This document shows, piece after piece, positions 26,382 to 51,040 of a stretch of DNA of 64,000 bases. The stretch lies in the sequence record KR014248; one strand, given 5' to 3'. This DNA is from Escherichia phage vB_EcoM_AYO145A. The first letter of the stretch is position 1, and each line of letters begins with the position of its first letter. Both the position numbers and the translations under genes were made by a program. The notes below the pieces were generated by a model. That model was not told where the DNA came from, ran no database searches, and saw nothing but the letters and a program-made list of their open reading frames with translations.

Positions 26382-26458
26382 CTCTGTTTAGCTCAGCTTG
26401 GTAGAGCGTTCCGTTTGGGGCGGTAAGGCCGGAGGTTCAAGTCCTCCAACAGAGACCA
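26382..26458 (+). tRNA. tRNA-Pro(TGG)
   Basis: cloverleaf by eye; anticodon loop TTTGGGG; D- and T-arms close to E. coli tRNA-Pro; CCA encoded. Confidence 0.75.
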
Positions 26459-26465
26459 AATTAAT

Positions 26466-26543
26466 GTTCCAGTAGACAAAATGGTAAAGTCACCACTCTT
26501 TCAAAGTGGATATTTGAGGGTTCAAATCCCTTCTGGAACGCCA
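26466..26543 (+). tRNA. tRNA-Glu(TTC)
   Basis: acceptor GTTCCAG/CTGGAAC; anticodon loop CTTTCAA; T-loop TTCAAAT; CCA. Confidence 0.7.
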
Positions 26544-26550
26544 GTTTTGA

Positions 26551-26623
26551 CAGAAGACCAATTACAGCAAACTTAATCTTATTCATCTGACACGAAATCG
26601 GACAAAGAAGAGATTTGGTCTGG
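26551..26623 (+). ncRNA. structured spacer RNA candidate (CAGAAGACC...GGTCTGG family, copy 1)
   Basis: 5' CAGAAGACCA and 3' TGGTCTGG form the terminal helix; shared internal CAGCAA box. Confidence 0.3.
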
Positions 26624-26634
26624 TCATTAAGAAT

Positions 26635-26711
26635 TGCGGGTATAGAGAAAGGGCGTCTCACATGTCTCATTAGCATGGTATCGGCAGGTTCGACTCCTGC
26701 ACCCGCCTCCA
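26635..26711 (+). tRNA. tRNA-Met(CAT), or Ile2/fMet
   Basis: anticodon loop CTCATTA; T-arm GCAGGttcgactCCTGC; CCA. Confidence 0.55.
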
Positions 26712-26717
26712 ATTTTG

Positions 26718-26777
26718 CAGAAGACCGTATGCAGCAATAAACTACTTTTTGCGGATAAAAGAAAAAACACGGTCTGG
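26718..26777 (+). ncRNA. structured spacer RNA candidate (same family, copy 2)
   Basis: CAGAAGACCG ... CGGTCTGG; compensatory G:C where copy 1 has A:T. Confidence 0.3.
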
Positions 26778-26788
26778 CAATGTATTAA

Positions 26789-26865
26789 GGTTAGGAAGCA
26801 CATAAGGTATGTGCGGTCGCCTGTTAAGCGAATGGCACAGGGTTCGAATCCCTGACTAACCGCCA
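26789..26865 (+). tRNA. tRNA-Asn(GTT)
   Basis: anticodon loop CTGTTAA; T-arm CAGGGttcgaatCCCTG; CCA. Confidence 0.65.
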
Positions 26866-26874
26866 AATTTAAAT

Positions 26875-26962
26875 GTGTCGTTATCCCGTAGATGGTAGCG
26901 GTGGGGACTGTAAATCCCTTGTCATTGAGACTCGGTAGGTTCGACTCCTACACGGCACACCA
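26875..26962 (+). tRNA. tRNA-Tyr(GTA)
   Basis: 88 nt with long variable arm; anticodon loop CTGTAAA; CCA. Confidence 0.7.
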
Positions 26963-26968
26963 AATAAA

Positions 26969-27046
26969 GGTTATGTAGTTTAATCTGGTTAAAATACTCC
27001 CCTGTCACGGGAGATGATGAGGGTTCAAATCCCTTCGTAACCGCCA
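26969..27046 (+). tRNA. tRNA-Asp(GTC)
   Basis: anticodon stem CTCCC/GGGAG, loop CTGTCAC; CCA. Confidence 0.75.
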
Positions 27047-27133
27047 AATTATAATAAGTATTCCAAGATGATGTTTTGAGAGGGCTATTTAGCCCCTCCC
27101 TTAAAGAGTTCTTACGAGTATTCTTTAAAGGAG

Positions 27134-27210
27134 CAGAAGACCAAATTCAGCAAGTACGTATGATATTTTCAAGCCAATTTAATTTTGAAAAAATTTAAAA
27201 CTTGGTCTGG
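27134..27210 (+). ncRNA. structured spacer RNA candidate (same family, copy 3)
   Basis: CAGAAGACCAA ... TTGGTCTGG. Confidence 0.3.
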
Positions 27211-27223
27211 CTCAACAAATTTA

Positions 27224-27355
27224 CAGAAGACCGTTTACAGCAAAACTTAAACAATCTATTTCTCCGGTAAAGAAAAGGCGAAGGTTCGATTCCTTCACTC
27301 GGCAGATGTCGAGTTGGTGTAATGGTAGCACTTAAGATGATAAACAACGGTCTGG
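27224..27355 (+). ncRNA. Y-RNA-like RNA candidate (YrlA-type, permuted tRNA-like module)
   Basis: terminal helix AGACCGT/ACGGTCT; inside, T-arm GAAGGttcgattCCTTC, then ACTCGGC-agat-GTCGAGT acceptor-like hairpin, then TG and D-arm GTGTaatggtaGCAC; about 1 kb downstream of the Ro60-like gene. Confidence 0.45.
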
Positions 27356-27357
27356 TA

Positions 27358-27500
27358 ATTATCTTTGTAGATAAGTTATTAAGCTTACCTGTGAGTATGC
27401 GACCACAAAGGGTGAAAGGGTAAATTCTAGATTTAAACCCAACAAGGCACATCGCTACAGACCTTAAGCAAGTCTGGGTAGCTTATCTACAAAGATAATT
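27358..27500 (+). ncRNA. structured RNA candidate closed by a perfect 19-bp inverted repeat
   Basis: AATTATCTTTGTAGATAAG (27358-27376) is the exact reverse complement of CTTATCTACAAAGATAATT (27482-27500); internal CAGACcttaagcaaGTCTG hairpin. Confidence 0.35.
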
Positions 27501-27505
27501 TTAAT

Positions 27506-27581
27506 GGAAGTGTAGCAGAATGGTGATGCGGCAGACTTTTAATCTGACAGGCGATGGGTTCGAATCCCTCCACTTCTACCA
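27506..27581 (+). tRNA. tRNA-Lys(TTT)
   Basis: anticodon loop CTTTTAA; T-loop TTCGAAT; CCA. Confidence 0.65.
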
Positions 27582-27585
27582 ATAT

Positions 27586-27662
27586 GGTTCAGTCGCAGAT
27601 AAGGTAATGCAGGGGTCTCATAAGCCCTATGAATGTGGGTTCGATTCCCATCTGAACCTCCA
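27586..27662 (+). tRNA. tRNA-Met/Ile(CAT)
   Basis: acceptor GGTTCAG/CTGAACC; anticodon loop CTCATAA; CCA. Confidence 0.65.
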
Positions 27663-27663
27663 A

Positions 27664-27739
27664 GCTGGTATAGTTAAGAAGGTTATAACACTCCCCTGAT
27701 AAGGGAACATCGGTGGTTCGATTCCACCTACCAGTACCA
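27664..27739 (+). tRNA. tRNA-Ile(GAT)
   Basis: D-stem GTTA/TAAC; anticodon loop CTGATAA; T-arm GGTGGttcgattCCACC; CCA. Confidence 0.65.
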
Positions 27740-27754
27740 ATTTCAATAAAGTTG

Positions 27755-27783
27755 TTGACATTGAGATGTGACTACTTTATAGT
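27755..27783 (+). promoter_or_regulatory. sigma70-like promoter (TTGACA-N17-TATAGT)
   Basis: internal promoter inside the tRNA island. Confidence 0.5.
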
Positions 27784-27987
27784 AACCTTAGTTTTCGTTG
27801 CGTAGCGTCTATTTTGCAAATTTAAAATAAATGCAAACGACAATGTTTTTCTGGCAGTAGCTTGATAGGCTAAACACCAGTGAGGTCTTCCAATCCCTCA
27901 TCAAAGAATTTGGCGTACTCGCCCACGGTATGATTAATAAGGTGGGCATCTTTAAGGGCTTTCTAAGAGAGTCTTTAAAGATAATTA

Positions 27988-28069
27988 CGGGGCGTATCTC
28001 AGCGGTCTTCTAAACCGCCGTTAACCGAGTAAGTGGAGTATGCGGGTTCGAGTCCTGCCGCCTCGACCA
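27988..28069 (+). tRNA. tRNA-like, possibly Arg(TCT); non-canonical D region
   Basis: good acceptor (CGGGGCG/CGCCTCG), T-arm and CCA; GCGGTcttctaaACCGC fits an anticodon arm but leaves no room for a normal D-arm. Confidence 0.35.
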
Positions 28070-28211
28070 AATAGTTAGCAGATTACTTAGACGGTCTTAG
28101 CGGGTCTTCCTGTAGGGAGGTGGTCTGTATCTCATGTTTTCCAGAACATGTAAATAATCTGAGAAGGGGCTTTACAGTGTTGAGATAATACGGTAAGCTT
28201 CGAATTATAGT

Positions 28212-28294
28212 GTGGGACGATGTTAAGACTCTAAGGCATGAGCAACGGCTTCCAACACCGTTTCAAAGGGGTTCAACTCCTCCGTCCCATGCCA
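28212..28294 (+). tRNA. tRNA-like, possibly Trp(CCA); enlarged D region or anticodon loop
   Basis: acceptor GTGGGAC/GTCCCAT, T-loop TTCAACT, CCA; AACGG-cttccaaca-CCGTT contains CCA in a 7- or 9-nt loop. Confidence 0.35.
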
Positions 28295-28307
28295 AAGTCT
28301 TATTAGG

Positions 28308-28395
28308 GGTAGGTAGCGGCTAATGGTAGCCAAACTGTCTTGAAAACAGTTGCCACTGTAGAGATACGGTGAGGGTTCGACTCCTTTACTTACCG
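28308..28395 (+). tRNA. tRNA-Ser(TGA)
   Basis: class II: anticodon stem ACTGT/ACAGT, loop CTTGAAA, long variable arm; 3' CCA not encoded (GCCT). Confidence 0.65.
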
Positions 28396-28652
28396 CCTAA
28401 TAAGATTTAAAGCCAAGCTTCATTCGGATGTTGCTTTGGTATACCGCGTGTATTGTTGTACGCACTGATAAAGCACCTAGTAGGTGTCACGGAGAAGAGA
28501 TAATATCAAGCTCTCCAAAGGTTCTAGTCACCGGATTAAACAAGACTATGCAAAGACCTTTTTAGGTCTTTTTAGAGGGCTTCTAAGGTTATTACAGCTT
28601 GTTGTGGAACCTTGTTGCTTAGGTTCTTAGAAGTTCTCTAAAAAGACTTAAT

Positions 28653-28730
28653 GGGAGATTGACGGTAATTGGTAAACCTATCTCGCTTAGAACGAGATGT
28701 TTGAGGGTTCGAATCCCTTGTCTCCTACCA
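28653..28730 (+). tRNA. tRNA with anticodon TAG (Leu by anticodon; class-I-like shape)
   Basis: anticodon stem TCTCG/CGAGA, loop CTTAGAA; T-loop TTCGAAT; CCA; short variable loop. Confidence 0.5.
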
Positions 28731-28737
28731 AATTAAT

Positions 28738-28813
28738 GCAGGTGTAGCAAAATGGTTATGCGGCTGACTCTTAATCAGTAAGACGATGGGTTCAATTCCC
28801 TCCACCTGTACCA
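28738..28813 (+). tRNA. tRNA-Lys(CTT), tentative
   Basis: acceptor GCAGGTG/CACCTGT; anticodon loop CTCTTAA; weak T-stem; CCA. Confidence 0.5.
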
Positions 28814-28819
28814 AACAAT

Positions 28820-28895
28820 GGGGATGTAGTTTACATGGTTAAAACATAAGTTTTGCAAACTTAAGTACAGGGTTCAATTCCCTGCTTCTCCACCA
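28820..28895 (+). tRNA. tRNA-Ala(TGC)
   Basis: anticodon stem TAAGT/ACTTA, loop TTTGCAA; T-arm CAGGGttcaattCCCTG; CCA. Confidence 0.65.
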
Positions 28896-28901
28896 ATTAG
28901 T

Positions 28902-28976
28902 GCATCCATAGTTTAAACGGGAAAATTACAGTCTTCCAAACTGAGGTTGAGGGTTCGATTCCCTCTGGATGCTCCA
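28902..28976 (+). tRNA. tRNA-Gly(TCC)
   Basis: acceptor GCATCCA/TGGATGC; anticodon loop CTTCCAA; CCA. Confidence 0.7.
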
Positions 28977-28982
28977 AACAAT

Positions 28983-29059
28983 GCTGCTTTCGTATAATTG
29001 GCTATTACACATCCCTTGTAAGGATGGAAATGCAGGTTCGAGTCCTGTGAGCAGCACCA
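28983..29059 (+). tRNA. tRNA-Thr(TGT)
   Basis: anticodon stem CATCC/GGATG, loop CTTGTAA; CCA. Confidence 0.7.
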
Positions 29060-29062
29060 ATT

Positions 29063-29150
29063 CAGAGGTCAAGTGAAAGACCGCTTTGAGTCAACTGAAG
29101 ACCGTAACAAATTCCACGGAGTTGAGTTAGCGGCACAACTCCAGACCTCT
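29063..29150 (+). ncRNA. structured spacer element
   Basis: outer helix AGAGGTC/GACCTCT enclosing GGAGTTGagttagcggcaCAACTCC hairpin and a GAAGACCG box. Confidence 0.25.
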
Positions 29151-29155
29151 TTCAT

Positions 29156-29230
29156 ACTCGCTTAGTTTATATGGTAAAACATCACCCTTACAAGATGAAG
29201 AAAAAGGTTCAAGCCCTTTAGTGAGTACCA
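29156..29230 (+). tRNA. tRNA-Val(TAC)
   Basis: D-stem GTTT/AAAC; anticodon loop CTTACAA; CCA. Confidence 0.65.
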
Positions 29231-29231
29231 T

Positions 29232-29309
29232 GTTCCAGTATCCCAATTGGCAGAGGATGCAAGCTCAAACCTTGTATTAGTGACGGTTCGAATCCGTCTT
29301 GGAACACCA
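29232..29309 (+). tRNA. tRNA with anticodon CAA (Leu by anticodon)
   Basis: anticodon stem GCAAG/CTTGT, loop CTCAAAC; T-arm GACGGttcgaatCCGTC; CCA. Confidence 0.55.
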
Positions 29310-29314
29310 ATTTT

Positions 29315-29390
29315 GCAGGATTAGTTCAAATGGAAAGAGCAACAGTCTACGAAGCTGTTAATAGGGGTTCGAATCCCTTATCCTGCGCCA
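29315..29390 (+). tRNA. tRNA-Arg(ACG)
   Basis: acceptor GCAGGAT/ATCCTGC; anticodon loop CTACGAA; CCA. Confidence 0.7.
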
Positions 29391-29409
29391 ATTTAAAGAG
29401 GCTATTTAG

Positions 29410-29967
29410 ATGAGATATTTGAAGTATGCTTCATGGATTTTCTTAGCTTTGTTAGAGCCATTTGCAGCAATCTTAGCAGTTATCTTAGCACCTTTCGTAG
29501 TTCCATTCTACAGTGAGAAGAAAGGCCACTTACCTTTCGGATTTAGATGGATGGAGACCTATGACAACCCGATTGATGGTGATGAAGGCCACGTTAAAAG
29601 ATGGGCTAAGATTAGAAAGATTGGTAAGCTCGGTGTTTATATGCAGAGAGTTGGATGGCTCTGGAGAAACAAAGCTTATAACTTCTCTTACCATGTATTA
29701 GGAAGAGATGTAAAAGATGTTACTAAGTGGAAAGGTAATATCAACGTAAGTTCTAACCCTGAAGATAATCAGACAGGTTATCTCCTAATGTGGAACAGTA
29801 ATGCTTGGGGATTATTTGCTTTTATCCCATCTATTAAAGTCTTTGGTAAACAATTCTACTGGAGAATTTATGTTGGGTGGAAACTAAAAAGTGTTGTCCC
29901 AGAAGAAAGAGCATTCTCAAGGGAAAGAGTTATGTTGGCATTCTTTATTCATCCACTAAGAAAATAA
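29410..29967 (+). CDS. hypothetical membrane protein embedded in the tRNA island
   Basis: 185-aa ORF with N-terminal hydrophobic segment; flanked by tRNAs. Confidence 0.5.
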   Translation: MRYLKYASWIFLALLEPFAAILAVILAPFVVPFYSEKKGHLPFGFRWMETYDNPIDGDEGHVKRWAKIRKIGKLGVYMQRVGWLWRNKAYNFSYHVLGRDVKDVTKWKGNINVSSNPEDNQTGYLLMWNSNAWGLFAFIPSIKVFGKQFYWRIYVGWKLKSVVPEERAFSRERVMLAFFIHPLRK

Positions 29968-29975
29968 AGATTTAA

Positions 29976-30051
29976 AGGGGATTAGTTTACAAGGTTAAAA
30001 CCTCGGTCTTTGAAATCGAAGAAGTTGGTTCAATTCCAACATCCCCCGCCA
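29976..30051 (+). tRNA. tRNA-Gln(TTG)
   Basis: anticodon stem TCGGT/ATCGA, loop CTTTGAA; T-arm GTTGGttcaattCCAAC; CCA. Confidence 0.65.
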
Positions 30052-30053
30052 AT

Positions 30054-30132
30054 GCTCCATTACTCCAATTGGCAGAGAGGCCAGACTTAAAATCTGTGTT
30101 ATGTATCGGTTCGAATCCGATATGGAGTACCA
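30054..30132 (+). tRNA. tRNA with anticodon TAA (Leu by anticodon)
   Basis: anticodon loop CTTAAAA; T-arm ATCGGttcgaatCCGAT; CCA; 7-nt variable loop. Confidence 0.55.
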
Positions 30133-30137
30133 AATTT

Positions 30138-30213
30138 AGCGGTATAGCATAACTGGCAATGCAACAGTCTCTGAAGCTGTCCTATTAAGGTTCAAATCCT
30201 TATGCCGCTGCCA
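30138..30213 (+). tRNA. tRNA-Gln(CTG)
   Basis: anticodon loop CTCTGAA; T-arm TAAGGttcaaatCCTTA; CCA. Confidence 0.65.
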
Positions 30214-30244
30214 CTTCTAAGGGTTCTTACGAGAGTCCTTAAAT

Positions 30245-30320
30245 GTGGCCTTATCATAAAAGGTAATGACCCATGCTGTGAACATGGTCTATACGGGTTC
30301 AAATCCCGTAGGTCACCCCA
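30245..30320 (+). tRNA. tRNA-His(GTG)
   Basis: anticodon stem CCATG/CATGG, loop CTGTGAA; CCA. Confidence 0.7.
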
Positions 30321-30326
30321 ATTTAT

Positions 30327-30402
30327 AGTCCAAGTAGCTTATATGGTTAAAGCGCGTGTCTGAAAAACATGAGAAGAGGGTTCAAATCCCACTGGACTAC
30401 CA
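30327..30402 (+). tRNA. tRNA-Phe(GAA)
   Basis: D-stem GCTT/AAGC; anticodon loop CTGAAAA; T-loop TTCAAAT; CCA. Confidence 0.65.
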
Positions 30403-30418
30403 ATTTCAAAGGTGCTTA

Positions 30419-31153
30419 ATGAAAGAGATGACAGAACAAGGTAAGGAGATTTTTAATCTCTTAAAAACCGGTAAAGGGTTCTCTAACCCGCTTATTACTG
30501 GTGCAGCAGTTCTCGGTGGAACCGTAGCTGCTTCTACATCACTTGTAAGCTCTATTAGTTCTGTAACAGACCCTACAATGAAGGAGAAACTTGTTGCTGC
30601 TGGACTTACAACAGTCCTTTTAAACAGCTTTACAACAAGCCTTACAAGCACTACAGCAACTACTAAGACCCTAACAGACTACGGTCAAAAGTCTATTGAT
30701 GAGTTTTCATCACGTATGCAGGTAGCAAAGGGATACTCCAATGTTATGGGTGCAGTAGGAGAACAAGTTGGTTGTACACCATTCAGTGGTATTATGGGTG
30801 TTGCTACAGAGTATGGTCAAAAAGCTATTGACACAATTAACAGTGCACTAGACGGTGTTAATGATGTATTAAGTGACTTACAAGATGCTATTGATAAAGG
30901 TCTTGATACTGTTTCTGATTTAGCTAACCAAGCTGTTAGTAAGATTAATGAAGGTATCTCAAAGATTACAGCTTATGCAGATGAAGTTGTGCAGATGATT
31001 GAAGAAGAAGCTGCCCTTATTGCAGAGTACCTTAAAACAAATATCAATGGGTTCTTAGCAGGTATCTTACCAGACTGGTTTGATGATGCTTGTAAAACTG
31101 GTGTGATTGATACTATTGCAACACCAGAAATGAAGAACGCATTACAGAAATAA
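30419..31153 (+). CDS. hypothetical Ser/Thr/Ala-rich protein
   Basis: the ORF-track start at 30356 lies inside tRNA-Phe; first ATG after the tRNA is 30419; low-complexity N-terminal half. Confidence 0.5.
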   Translation: MKEMTEQGKEIFNLLKTGKGFSNPLITGAAVLGGTVAASTSLVSSISSVTDPTMKEKLVAAGLTTVLLNSFTTSLTSTTATTKTLTDYGQKSIDEFSSRMQVAKGYSNVMGAVGEQVGCTPFSGIMGVATEYGQKAIDTINSALDGVNDVLSDLQDAIDKGLDTVSDLANQAVSKINEGISKITAYADEVVQMIEEEAALIAEYLKTNINGFLAGILPDWFDDACKTGVIDTIATPEMKNALQK

Positions 31154-31154
31154 T

Positions 31155-31247
31155 GGAAGATTAACCCTAAAAGGTAAGGGAGCAGTTTGCTAAACTGCCA
31201 GTAGCTGAGAAATCGGTGTACCAGTTCAAGTCTGGTATCTTCCTCCA
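31155..31247 (+). tRNA. tRNA-Ser(GCT)
   Basis: class II, 93 nt: acceptor GGAAGAT/ATCTTCC, anticodon stem GCAGT/ACTGC, loop TTGCTAA, long variable arm; CCA. Confidence 0.65.
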
Positions 31248-31251
31248 ATTT

Positions 31252-31327
31252 GAATCCGTGACAGAAATGGCTATGTGCCTGTCTGCAAAACAGGTTTATA
31301 AGGGTTCGAGTCCCTTCGGATTCTCCA
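31252..31327 (+). tRNA. tRNA-Cys(GCA)
   Basis: acceptor GAATCCG/CGGATTC; anticodon stem CCTGT/ACAGG, loop CTGCAAA; CCA. Confidence 0.7.
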
Positions 31328-40496: not shown

Positions 40497-41849
40497 ATGT
40501 GGAATCCAATTGTTAATGTAGATATTACATTGAACACCGCAGGAACTACAAGAGAAGGTTTTGGTTTGCCACTATTCTTAGCTTCAACAGATAACTTTGA
40601 AGAGAGAGTTCGTGGCTACACTTCCTTAACTGAAGTTGCTGAAGACTTCGATGAGAATACTGCTGCATATAAGGCTGCTAAACAACTTTGGAGTCAGACT
40701 CCTAAAGTAACTCAGCTTTATATTGGTAGACGTTCTATGCAGTACACTGTATCAATTCCTGATGCCGTTTCCGAAAGTACAGACTACTCAATTACTGTAG
40801 CTGTTGGTGGTGGAATCTCTCAACCATTCCAGTACACAGCACAAAGCTCAGACACTGCTGAGGTGGTTTTGCAACAGTTTAAAACACAGATTGAAGCTGA
40901 CCCAACAATCAAAGATAAGGTTTCTGTGAACGTAACTGGTAGTGCTGGTTCTGCCACAATGATTATTACTAAAGCTGGTGATAATGACTTTGTGAAAGTA
41001 ACAACCACAGCACAGACTGTATATATTGCAGGTACAACTGCCGATACAGCATCAACTGCTCTGGCAGCCATTGAAGCTTATTCTACTGACTGGTATTTCA
41101 TTGCAGCGGAAGACAGAACTCAACAGTTTGTCTTAGCAATGGCTTCTGAGATTCAGGCTCGTAAGAAAATCTTCTTTACAGCCAACTCCGATGTAACAGC
41201 ACTACAAGGCACGGAGTTAGCCAGTGCAAATGATGTTCCAGCACAGCTTGCTAAGGGTATGTATACTCGCACAGTTTGCTTGTGGCATCACGCAGCGGCA
41301 GAAGACTATCCAGAAATGGCATACATTGCTTATGGTGCTCCATATGATGCAGGTTCAATTGCTTGGGGTAATGCTCAGCTAACTGGTGTAGCTGCTTCTC
41401 TACAGCCAGCTAATAAGAGACCTCTGACAAGTATTCAGAAGTCAGCTTTAGATGCACGTCACTGTAACTTTATCGACCTTGATGGTGGTGTTCCAGTGGT
41501 TCGTAGAGGGATTACTTCTGGTGGGGAATGGATTGATATCGTCCGTGGTGTTGACTGGTTAGAATCAGACCTGAAAACTTCTCTGAGAGACTTGCTAATT
41601 AACCAGAAGGGTGGTAAGATTACTTATGATGATACTGGTATTACCCGTATTCGTCAAGTCATTGAAACCTCTCTACAAAGAGCAGTCAACAGAAACTTCC
41701 TGTCATCTTACACAGTTAATGTTCCTAAAGCCTCTCAAGTTGCTTTGGCAGACAAGAAAGCTCGTATCCTGAAAGATGTTACCTTCGCAGGTATCTTAGC
41801 AGGGGCTATCTTGGATGTTGACTTGAAAGGTACAGTGGCTTACGAATAA
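40497..41849 (+). CDS. putative tail sheath protein
   Basis: 450 aa, followed by a 148-aa gene, a frameshift chaperone pair and the tape measure (myovirus order). Confidence 0.45.
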   Translation: MWNPIVNVDITLNTAGTTREGFGLPLFLASTDNFEERVRGYTSLTEVAEDFDENTAAYKAAKQLWSQTPKVTQLYIGRRSMQYTVSIPDAVSESTDYSITVAVGGGISQPFQYTAQSSDTAEVVLQQFKTQIEADPTIKDKVSVNVTGSAGSATMIITKAGDNDFVKVTTTAQTVYIAGTTADTASTALAAIEAYSTDWYFIAAEDRTQQFVLAMASEIQARKKIFFTANSDVTALQGTELASANDVPAQLAKGMYTRTVCLWHHAAAEDYPEMAYIAYGAPYDAGSIAWGNAQLTGVAASLQPANKRPLTSIQKSALDARHCNFIDLDGGVPVVRRGITSGGEWIDIVRGVDWLESDLKTSLRDLLINQKGGKITYDDTGITRIRQVIETSLQRAVNRNFLSSYTVNVPKASQVALADKKARILKDVTFAGILAGAILDVDLKGTVAYE

Positions 41850-41864
41850 TAGAGGTAAATTGGA

Positions 41865-42311
41865 ATGGCTATGTATCAGCAATATTCCCCTAAAGACGTT
41901 GTATGTAGCTGGAATGGTATTGCCATTGAAGGCTTTGCCCCAGACTCATTCTTACGTCTACAGAGAACATCACCACTTGTGACACCAGTTGTTGGTGCAG
42001 GTGGTCAGGTTGCTCTGACAAGAAATGCAGACAAGACAGGTACTATTGAGATTGAGTTAATGCAGACTTCTCTCTCTAACCAGATGCTTTCTGCAATTCA
42101 AGCTAAACAAGACAATATGGAACTTGAAGAAGATATCTCTTCTAACTTCGTAATCTACGACCCATCAGGCTCTGTTCTGGCAACTGGTATTAATGCTTGG
42201 TTGCAGGAATTACCACAGATTGAACTTGGTCGTGACCAGAACTCTAAAACTTGGATTTTTGGTTGTGAGAAGCTAGACTACACTTCTACAATTCCAGCGT
42301 CAAGTGTTTAA
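41865..42311 (+). CDS. putative tail tube protein
   Basis: 148 aa between sheath candidate and chaperones; strong terminator follows. Confidence 0.45.
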   Translation: MAMYQQYSPKDVVCSWNGIAIEGFAPDSFLRLQRTSPLVTPVVGAGGQVALTRNADKTGTIEIELMQTSLSNQMLSAIQAKQDNMELEEDISSNFVIYDPSGSVLATGINAWLQELPQIELGRDQNSKTWIFGCEKLDYTSTIPASSV

Positions 42312-42323
42312 TAAATCCTATAA

Positions 42324-42356
42324 GGGGGAGACTTTAAAAGGTCTTCCCCTTTTTTG
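42324..42356 (+). terminator. rho-independent terminator
   Basis: GGGGAGACtttaaaagGTCTTCCCC followed by TTTTTTG. Confidence 0.65.
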
Positions 42357-42383
42357 TTTCTTTTAAAGTATTAAGGAATCACA

Positions 42384-42782
42384 ATGAAAACAGAATCTAG
42401 AGTAATTAATGGTAAAAAAGTAAATATCATTCTGCTTGGGGCAAGAGATGGTATTAAGATGTCTATGAAGTTGGGTAAGATTGTTGTTCCAACCTTTGCA
42501 CAGATGCTATCAAGTCTGACTGATAAAGATAAGAAAGAAGCTCCAATGGTTCCGTTTAAAGAACTTGTTGAAGCTTGCTTTGACAGAATTGAAGAAATTA
42601 ACCTTGAAGAAATGGCTACCATGTTATTTCAAGGGGCAACTGTTGATGACTTCCCACTTAATATTGATACATACTTCCAAGCAAACTATGGTGAATTTAT
42701 TGATTACTTAGCATTTGCGCTGGAGGCAAACTTCGGAAGTTTTTTCGAAGCAAGCATTTTCAAAAGCCTAACTTCTCAGTAA
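42384..42782 (+). CDS. tail assembly chaperone (G-like)
   Basis: 132 aa upstream of tape measure; in-frame T_TTT_TTC heptamer near its 3' end. Confidence 0.6.
   Translation: MKTESRVINGKKVNIILLGARDGIKMSMKLGKIVVPTFAQMLSSLTDKDKKEAPMVPFKELVEACFDRIEEINLEEMATMLFQGATVDDFPLNIDTYFQANYGEFIDYLAFALEANFGSFFEASIFKSLTSQ
42740..42746 (+). promoter_or_regulatory. candidate -1 frameshift slippery site TTTTTTC
   Basis: heptamer in the zero frame of the chaperone ORF; the -1 frame continues into ORF 42785..43024. Confidence 0.5.
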
Positions 42783-42784
42783 AC

Positions 42785-43023
42785 ATGGGTAACACTCTAC
42801 AGACACCACTAACTGATGCTGCTGTAGAGGCAACCTATGAAGAAGCAGACGAGATGAAATTTGTGCTTGCTATTTATGGTATGGAAGGGTGTAAAGAAAC
42901 ACTTGACCAACTCTTTGCTATGACATTCTCTGATTTATTATCATTGAGACAATTTCTTGAAATTCAGAGGTCGTATAAAGAGGAAATTGCTTACAACGAA
43001 CTTAGAAGAGCAGGAAAAATGTA

Positions 43024-43024
<1 letters not shown>
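42785..43024 (+). CDS. tail assembly chaperone extension (GT-like), likely made by -1 frameshift
   Basis: 79-aa ORF in the -1 frame relative to 42384..42782. Confidence 0.5.

Positions 43025-51040
<8,016 letters not shown>

Follow-up and report, generated by a model that had tools for sequence, protein, structure and literature searches.

The stretch of DNA analysed here, 64,000 nucleotides of Escherichia phage vB_EcoM_AYO145A (sequence record KR014248; hereafter the window), raises the question of how a short open reading frame lying directly before the tape measure protein gene is expressed: as a protein of its own, or as the C-terminal extension of the chaperone encoded just upstream, reached by a shift of the ribosome into the −1 frame. 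The window comes from a Felix O1-like myophage of the genus Felixounavirus, and its segment 41865-43100 has 98.3-98.8% DNA identity to many Escherichia and Salmonella Felixounavirus genomes, e.g. SP22, pSJ21 and Meda. From sequence comparison we consider it very probable that a programmed −1 ribosomal frameshift makes a fusion of the two frames, which are called ORF1 and ORF2 below. The locus is set among the following features.

Positions 40497-41849: tail sheath (phrog_205).
Positions 41865-42311, + strand: tail tube gene (PDB 9mt4_P, phrog_280, Pfam KPP10_Orf10).
Positions 42322-42361 (or 42322-42351), + strand: strong intrinsic terminator in the gap between the tube and chaperone genes, a stem-loop followed by TTTTGTTTCT.
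Positions 42384-42782, + strand: ORF1, tail assembly chaperone of 132 aa, the product of normal translation (open reading frame list, Pfam, PHROG).
Positions 43024-45252, + strand: tape measure protein gene (phrog_4036, Pfam TMP_3, PDB 9ndy_F).

The initial annotation had placed the pair of frames between a tail-tube candidate and the tape measure gene, and both neighbours are borne out by matches to PDB chains. The tube gene product aligns with PDB 9mt4_P, 'Tube protein', over 148/148 residues (E = 2.9e-96), and the tape measure protein aligns with PDB 9ndy_F, 'Tape measure protein (gp017)', over 742/742 residues. The gene order is tube-chaperone-tape measure, and the site is indeed, as had been claimed, the usual G/GT location in tailed phages. 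The terminator that precedes the chaperone gene has a stem of 13 bp with 6 G-C pairs and a 4-nt loop, and the Meda record has a terminator at the corresponding position. It would reduce transcription into the chaperone and tape measure genes.

The reading of the upstream frame as a tail assembly chaperone also holds. ORF1 matches Pfam PF21822 (Phage_TAC_15) with 71 bits, the gathering cut-off being 22 (E = 1.7e-19); the alignment covers ORF1 residues 9-124 and profile positions 1-124 of 127. It also matches phrog_1613, 'tail assembly chaperone', at 2.3e-49. ORF1 is the counterpart of lambda gpG and P2 gpE, and its Shine-Dalgarno sequence, AAGGA, forms an anti-SD duplex of −6.1 kcal/mol. The downstream frame, ORF2 (42785-43024, 79 aa), matches phrog_4963, which carries the same label, 'tail assembly chaperone' (2.8e-55), and has no Pfam match in a scan at E ≤ 0.1. 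Three further features link the two frames.

Positions 42740-42746, + strand: slippery heptamer T_TTT_TTC, in phase with ORF1 (AG-T TTT TTC).
Positions 42746-43024, + strand: −1-frame extension, the T-like part, an open frame of 92 codons and a stop that includes the annotated ORF2.
Positions 42384-43024, + strand: predicted frameshift fusion, GT-like, 213 aa, built by slipping on the heptamer.

The in-frame T_TTT_TTC heptamer had been assigned to 42740-42746 and lies exactly there, the sequence of 42738-42749 being AG T TTT TTC GAA. ORF1 codons begin at 42384 + 3k, and 42740 is the third base of Ser119 (AGT), which gives the X_XXY_YYZ phase; the TTT and TTC of the heptamer encode Phe120 and Phe121. 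The site is thus near the end of the chaperone frame, as proposed, at Ser119-Phe120-Phe121 of 132 aa. The −1 frame, said to run on into ORF2 at 42785-43024, stays open throughout 42704-43024. The ORF1 stop codon, TAA at 42780-42782, lies upstream of the −1-frame stop, and the two frames overlap without an intervening stop; a −1 shift would permit fusion anywhere within 42704-42782, a stretch of about 26 codons that contains the heptamer. At the far end, the −1-frame stop and the tape measure ATG share bases (TAATG). The predicted fusion consists of frame-0 residues 1-121 followed by RSKHFQKPNFSVNMGNTLQ...RRAGKM from frame −1. Its junction falls between ...EANFGSFF and RSKHFQKPNFSVNMGNTLQ..., i.e. 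...NFGSFF–RSKHFQKP..., and would be spanned by the peptides ...EANFGSFFR and SKHFQKPNFSVNMGNTLQ....

How much weight the heptamer carries depends on how often it would occur by chance. Among ORFs of the window that reach 150 aa or more, the frequency of in-phase X_XXY_YYZ heptamers is 0.0034 per codon, and from this base rate the probability of at least one in 26 codons is 8.5%, or 4.1% for A/T-only heptamers. Taken from one genome alone, the heptamer is only suggestive. It might be a by-product of encoding the conserved Ser-Phe-Phe in AT-rich DNA, with ORF2 expressed by another route or silent; the single-genome chance of 4-8% gives this some room, NF-x-SFF is conserved in the protein, and the commonest third base in this genome is T. 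However, the spelling of the motif here is unusual for the genome. The 68 putative genes of the window contain 23 Phe-Phe dipeptides, and the N-NT_TTT_TTY spelling is used only in the chaperone: T_TTT_TTY for x-Phe-Phe would be expected from codon usage at about 0.23, and it is seen at 0/22 of the other sites in the window, yet it occurs at this position in six lineages. Moreover, a by-product would not account for a −1 frame whose sequence and length are conserved, which in every case closes where the tape measure gene begins, and which has a PHROG family to itself. Taken together, we find the by-product explanation scarcely credible.

The six lineages were established by comparison with relatives of decreasing similarity. 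Chaperone identity to the window is 82% in SUSP2, 76% in Moogle, 51% in Yersinia phage P778 and 42% in Erwinia phage phiEa21-4. In all four, and in Meda, T_TTT_TTC is in phase at the homologous Ser-Phe-Phe, and in the same four the −1 frame is open from the heptamer to the tape measure gene. For remote relatives, IMG/VR was scanned with the chaperone alignment, which gave 35 loci. Loci L037-L041, with identities of 27-35%, have T_TTT_TTT in the corresponding NF-x-(S/T)-FF motif; their −1 extensions of 91-98 codons end at the start of a long tape-measure-like ORF, whose N-terminus, …F[IV][IV][DE]LGFS…, resembles that of the window's tape measure protein. The length of the −1 extension is 91-98 codons across all lineages. 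An in-phase T_TTT_TTY combined with such an extension is found in the six lineages down to 27% identity, and the only lineage examined that lacks a heptamer at the homologous position is the GC-rich L042, at 25% identity. Because the heptamer is in phase in every examined lineage except L042, chance does not explain it, and we take this comparative evidence to decide the case for a predicted frameshift site. Ser-Phe-Phe is also a conserved protein motif, so the conservation of the T-run is partly due to the protein.

Conservation extends beyond the heptamer into a block that we list separately.

Positions 42738-42768, + strand: nearly invariant 31-nt block, the dual-coding zone, consisting of the heptamer and the next 22 nt.

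The block reads AGTTTTTTCGA-N-GCAAGC-W-TTTTCAAAA-R-CC (42738-42768). In a DNA alignment of five genera whose chaperones are 42-82% identical, 28/31 of its columns are invariant, and the full conserved block is present in 36/42 loci compared. When the predicted fusions are aligned by codon and scored in 9-codon windows, the share of third positions that are invariant is 1.00 just after the slip site vs 0-0.38 elsewhere. Similarly, when the window is compared with Erwinia phages by blastn, only query 346-386 (window 42729-42769) aligns, at 92.7%. This is how a slip site followed by a segment read in two frames should look, and the pattern matches what would be expected of a dual-coding zone.

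The same conservation bears on whether ORF2 could be a separate gene. In that case the ribosomes would terminate at TAA 42780-42782 and re-initiate at the ATG that follows, giving a free 79-aa protein and leaving the heptamer without function.

Positions 42785-42787, + strand: ATG of the annotated ORF2, probably not a main initiation site.

This ATG sits 2 nt past the ORF1 stop, a spacing that would suit re-initiation, and two genes are annotated in most GenBank records. In Moogle, the corresponding ATG stands behind AGGAAGG, with an anti-SD duplex of −7.2 kcal/mol. In the window, however, ATG 42785 has no Shine-Dalgarno sequence: the best anti-SD duplex, scored on the 20 nt before the ATG, is +0.2 kcal/mol vs −5.1 to −7.9 kcal/mol for 11 neighbours. 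SUSP2, Moogle and Yersinia P778 do not keep the ATG at one position. In phiEa21-4 and in loci L038, L040 and L041, the first 40 codons of the −1 frame contain no ATG, GTG or TTG, and the extension is still conserved in both length and sequence. Furthermore, the −1-frame peptide is conserved from the heptamer onwards (RSKHFQKP), upstream of any candidate start, and a separate gene would give no reason for the −1 relationship, or for the in-phase heptamer, to persist at 27-42% identity. We therefore regard a separately translated ORF2 as distinctly improbable as the only route of expression; some independent translation of ORF2 may occur in some lineages, e.g. Moogle.

The programmed −1 ribosomal frameshift put forward in the initial annotation is thus supported by the chaperone family, the in-phase heptamer, the conserved −1 extension and the missing ribosome-binding site of ORF2. 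A shift in frame could also originate in the mRNA, by stuttering of RNA polymerase on the T6 run (42740-42745) and insertion of one extra U, so that a minority of transcripts would encode the fusion in frame. One inserted U changes the frame just as a −1 shift does, the run is extended to T7 in the remote relatives, and a weak hairpin at 42720-42736, directly before the T-run, could pause the polymerase. Nevertheless, the hairpin upstream of the T-run is not conserved in Yersinia P778 or phiEa21-4, and the T6 run is short. Productive transcriptional slippage in bacteria is said (Baranov et al. 2005; review PMC5009743) generally to need about 8-9 or more identical bases. The phase of the run is also informative: in every T6 lineage it is in the X_XXY_YYZ phase (AGT TTT TTC), and NNV TTT TTT, which is also T6, is never seen. 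We consider transcriptional slippage very improbable. A terminator-like call made up of 42720-42736 and the T-run was set aside as an artefact of the slippery T-run with a weak, unconserved hairpin.

With ribosomal frameshifting as the preferred reading, we examined what might stimulate it. All 64 heptamers have been measured in E. coli (Sharma et al. 2014; PMC4066793). Both U_UU.U_UU.C and U_UU.U_UU.U gave more than 0.10% −1 frameshifting without stimulators, and H_HH.U_UU.Y belongs to the most efficient heptamer class in that host (PMC4066793). A downstream stimulatory RNA structure was looked for and rejected for this clade: the 84-nt fold has z = −0.98 and the 54-nt fold, at −3.4 kcal/mol, has z = +0.93, no better than shuffled sequences. 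Across five lineages, RNAalifold gives a consensus of −1.44 kcal/mol, and neither covariation nor compensatory pairs support it. An 8-bp hairpin at about 42795-42830 was rejected as a stimulator, being 48 nt downstream and not conserved. The GGAGG at 42722-42726, 13 nt before the heptamer, was considered as an SD-like stimulator and dismissed, since it is absent in Yersinia P778 and phiEa21-4. An Rfam scan of 42300-43100 gave sub-threshold matches only, on the terminator region. Two of the remote loci, L037 and L038, do have small hairpins, 1-4 nt beyond their T7 run. As no stimulatory structure was found, the efficiency of the frameshift is probably low, in keeping with P2 E / E+E′ and with the low-level shift of lambda G/GT.

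The 22 nt after the heptamer (42747-42768) read CGA-N-GCAAGC-W-UUUUCAAAA-R-CC and form no fold. Beyond their dual coding, they might act as a linear, hairpin-free modulator of the frameshift that sets the ratio of short to long chaperone, an idea that we rate as improbable and offer as a long shot. Such a modulator could work by contacts between mRNA and rRNA in the entry channel, for example, or by way of the nascent peptide, SFF-EASIFK or SFF-RSKHFQKP. In engineered phages, insertions or synonymous codon changes near 42738-42768 would probably upset the chaperone ratio and tail assembly.

The following sequence of events would account for the two products. The majority of ribosomes would terminate at TAA 42780-42782, yielding the 132-aa chaperone. 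In a minority, the tRNA-Phe paired with UUU (P site) and that paired with UUC (A site) would both slip back by one base on U_UUU_UUC and re-pair with UUU UUU, a tandem −1 slippage. Decoding would then continue in the −1 frame with CGA AGC AAG... as far as TAA 43022-43024. The slip product would have 213 aa, comprising 121 chaperone residues and a T-like domain of 92 residues. If lambda gpG/gpGT and P2 gpE/gpE+E′ are a guide, the N-terminal part common to the two products would coat the tape measure protein, and the tube protein would be recruited by the C-terminal extension, the rarer of the two parts. Both chaperone products would leave before the virion is completed, again as proposed from lambda and P2. 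Our comparison shows the anatomy of the site, the protein families, the synteny, the conservation and the missing initiation signals of ORF2; that slippage takes place, that it is inefficient and what the products bind is inferred, the last of these by analogy. For Felix O1-like phages, no experimental detection of the fusion was found in the literature, and the papers on the Bas63 cryo-EM structure and on PhageMaP essentiality do not address the frameshift.

The PDB was searched as well. The predicted fusion has no match to PDB chains at E ≤ 1 except one that is spurious, and a profile of five ORF1 homologues found nothing among PDB sequences. For the tube and tape measure proteins there are solved chains (9mt4/9mt5, 9c39, 9ndy), and for the predicted fusion there is none, as would be expected if the chaperones leave the virion; absence from deposited models is indirect evidence of this.

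The frameshift feature is already known, and the same junction is annotated in near-identical phages. A joined CDS at this junction has been deposited for Salmonella phage Meda and for Citrobacter phages Moogle and Michonne; in Meda, whose DNA is 98.7% identical to the window over 41865-43100, it is labelled 'Tape measure chaperone frameshift product'. Fusions that we built by a slip on T_TTT_TTC are identical, residue for residue, to the deposited proteins AXY86324.1 of Meda and YP_009145710.1 of Moogle, and Michonne YP_009177317.1 is in the same protein cluster as these two. The genome announcements of Moogle and Mijalis mention the frameshift, citing Xu, Hendrix and Duda 2004 (PMC4319497, PMC5543628). 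The predicted fusion of the window differs from that of Meda in four residues, including S5F, D49G and M80L in the shared part. An exact-sequence lookup of the window's 213-aa fusion in the protein collection found it absent, because in most records of the genus the two ORFs are annotated separately. The phiEa21-4 record has no annotation for the extension, and in some Felixounavirus records ORF2 is labelled 'head closure protein'. What we describe is thus an annotation gap rather than a discovery: automatic calls give two small ORFs, the biologically relevant product is most likely the 213-aa −1 frameshift fusion, and the joined CDS should be annotated.

Finally, we compared the locus with two of the closest known systems. 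It shows the features of the G/GT class of Xu, Hendrix and Duda, namely the gene position, the −1 overlap, an in-phase heptamer, conservation and an ORF2 without initiation signals. Lambda gpG/gpGT was reportedly studied by Levin et al. 1993 and by Xu, Hendrix & Duda 2004, 2013 and 2014. Lambda and the window phage share the logic of two products with a common N-terminus (predicted, in the case of the window), of a −1 shift placed late in the first ORF, and of a location just before the tape measure gene. However, lambda is a siphovirus that slips on G_GGA_AAG, whereas the window belongs to a myophage with T_TTT_TTC, and the proteins of the two are not detectably homologous. For lambda, both the product ratio and the binding partners are known; for the window phage they are inferred. 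In lambda, a low-level −1 shift gives a product ratio of about 30:1, and neither product is found in the virion (PMC5009743), which the lack of ORF1 and ORF2 among the solved virion chains of the PDB would fit.

P2, like the window phage, is contractile-tailed and carries its chaperone gene between the tube and tape measure genes. The programmed −1 frameshift of P2 E / E+E′ was reportedly described by Christie et al. 2002. In P2 the −1 shift occurs on TTTTTTG, with no hairpin (PMC3091744), and the window has TTTTTTC; both heptamers lie near the end of a short ORF, and both are without a downstream hairpin. The products are 91 and 142 aa in P2, compared with 132 and a predicted 213 aa in the window. 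Homology to the P2 gpE family was not detected in the Pfam scan of ORF1 (E ≤ 0.1), which returned Phage_TAC_15 and one spurious match. The P2 frameshift was demonstrated experimentally, whereas that of the window is predicted from sequence. The locus adds nothing new on recoding; it is probably one more conserved tail chaperone frameshift on a U-run that does without a stimulatory structure, as in P2.

In the 68 putative genes of the window, Phe-Phe dipeptides occur 23 times, and the spelling N-NT_TTT_TTY is used in only one of them, that of the chaperone, compared with approximately five expected from codon usage. This deficit suggests that the rest of the genome avoids the U-run heptamer, which is likewise under-represented in E. 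coli genes (PMC4066793). In the slip site, T_TTT_TTC, both codons are read by tRNA-Phe(GAA), a species that the phage itself encodes within a tRNA cluster.

26382-31327, + strand: cluster of 25 tRNA genes
30327-30402, + strand: tRNA-Phe(GAA), a member of this cluster

Two further features flank the proposed frameshift unit, one at each end.

42322-42361, + strand: predicted intrinsic terminator (13-bp stem with 6 G-C pairs, T-rich tail)
43022-43026, + strand: TAATG overlap of the stop of the -1-frame extension with the ATG of the tape measure gene

The predicted terminator, a strong one, lies between the tail tube and chaperone genes, and a terminator is annotated at the equivalent position in phage Meda. 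Its effect would be to make transcription weaker over the chaperone and tape measure genes than over those for sheath and tube. At the downstream end, termination at the very start of the tape measure gene is confined to frameshifted ribosomes; those that stay in frame 0 stop 242 nt before it. Meda, Moogle, SUSP2 and Yersinia P778 share the stop/ATG overlap, and phiEa21-4 has a 3-nt gap between the extension stop and the tape measure start.

Felix O1-like chaperone sequence is found in GU169904.1, 'Staphylococcus phage SA1' (147 kb; 74360-75000), and likewise in the 'Staphylococcus hyicus' protein WP_252560994.1, the similarity being 97% DNA identity or membership of the same 90% cluster; these two records are most likely chimeric or contaminated. 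Homologues of the downstream ORF (42785-43024) carry different labels in public records: 'hypothetical protein', 'tape measure chaperone' and 'head closure protein', the last wrongly, in Salmonella phage SUT_S820 and Escherichia phage C600M2, and the feature labels of LR597658.1 are shifted out of register with its genes.

Remote chaperone loci from IMG/VR differ at the slip-site position; the first below is a GC-rich relative with 25% identity to the chaperone of the window.

UViG_3300035050_000006, 1197-1810: L042 locus

L042 retains a -1 ORF of 138 codons, which runs up to the start of the tape measure gene. The heptamer is absent at its homologous NFGDLF position, and its sole in-phase heptamer, CCCTTTC (1469-1475), lies far upstream of that position. 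In L038, a hairpin is located 1 nt past a T7 run. L037 (UViG_3300025655_000030) carries two in-phase slippery heptamers at 1848-1863, T_TTT_TTT followed 2 nt on by G_GGA_AAG, and a hairpin begins 4 nt past the T-run (fold -13.5 kcal/mol, z = -1.8). The second of these heptamers, G_GGA_AAG, is that of lambda G-T.
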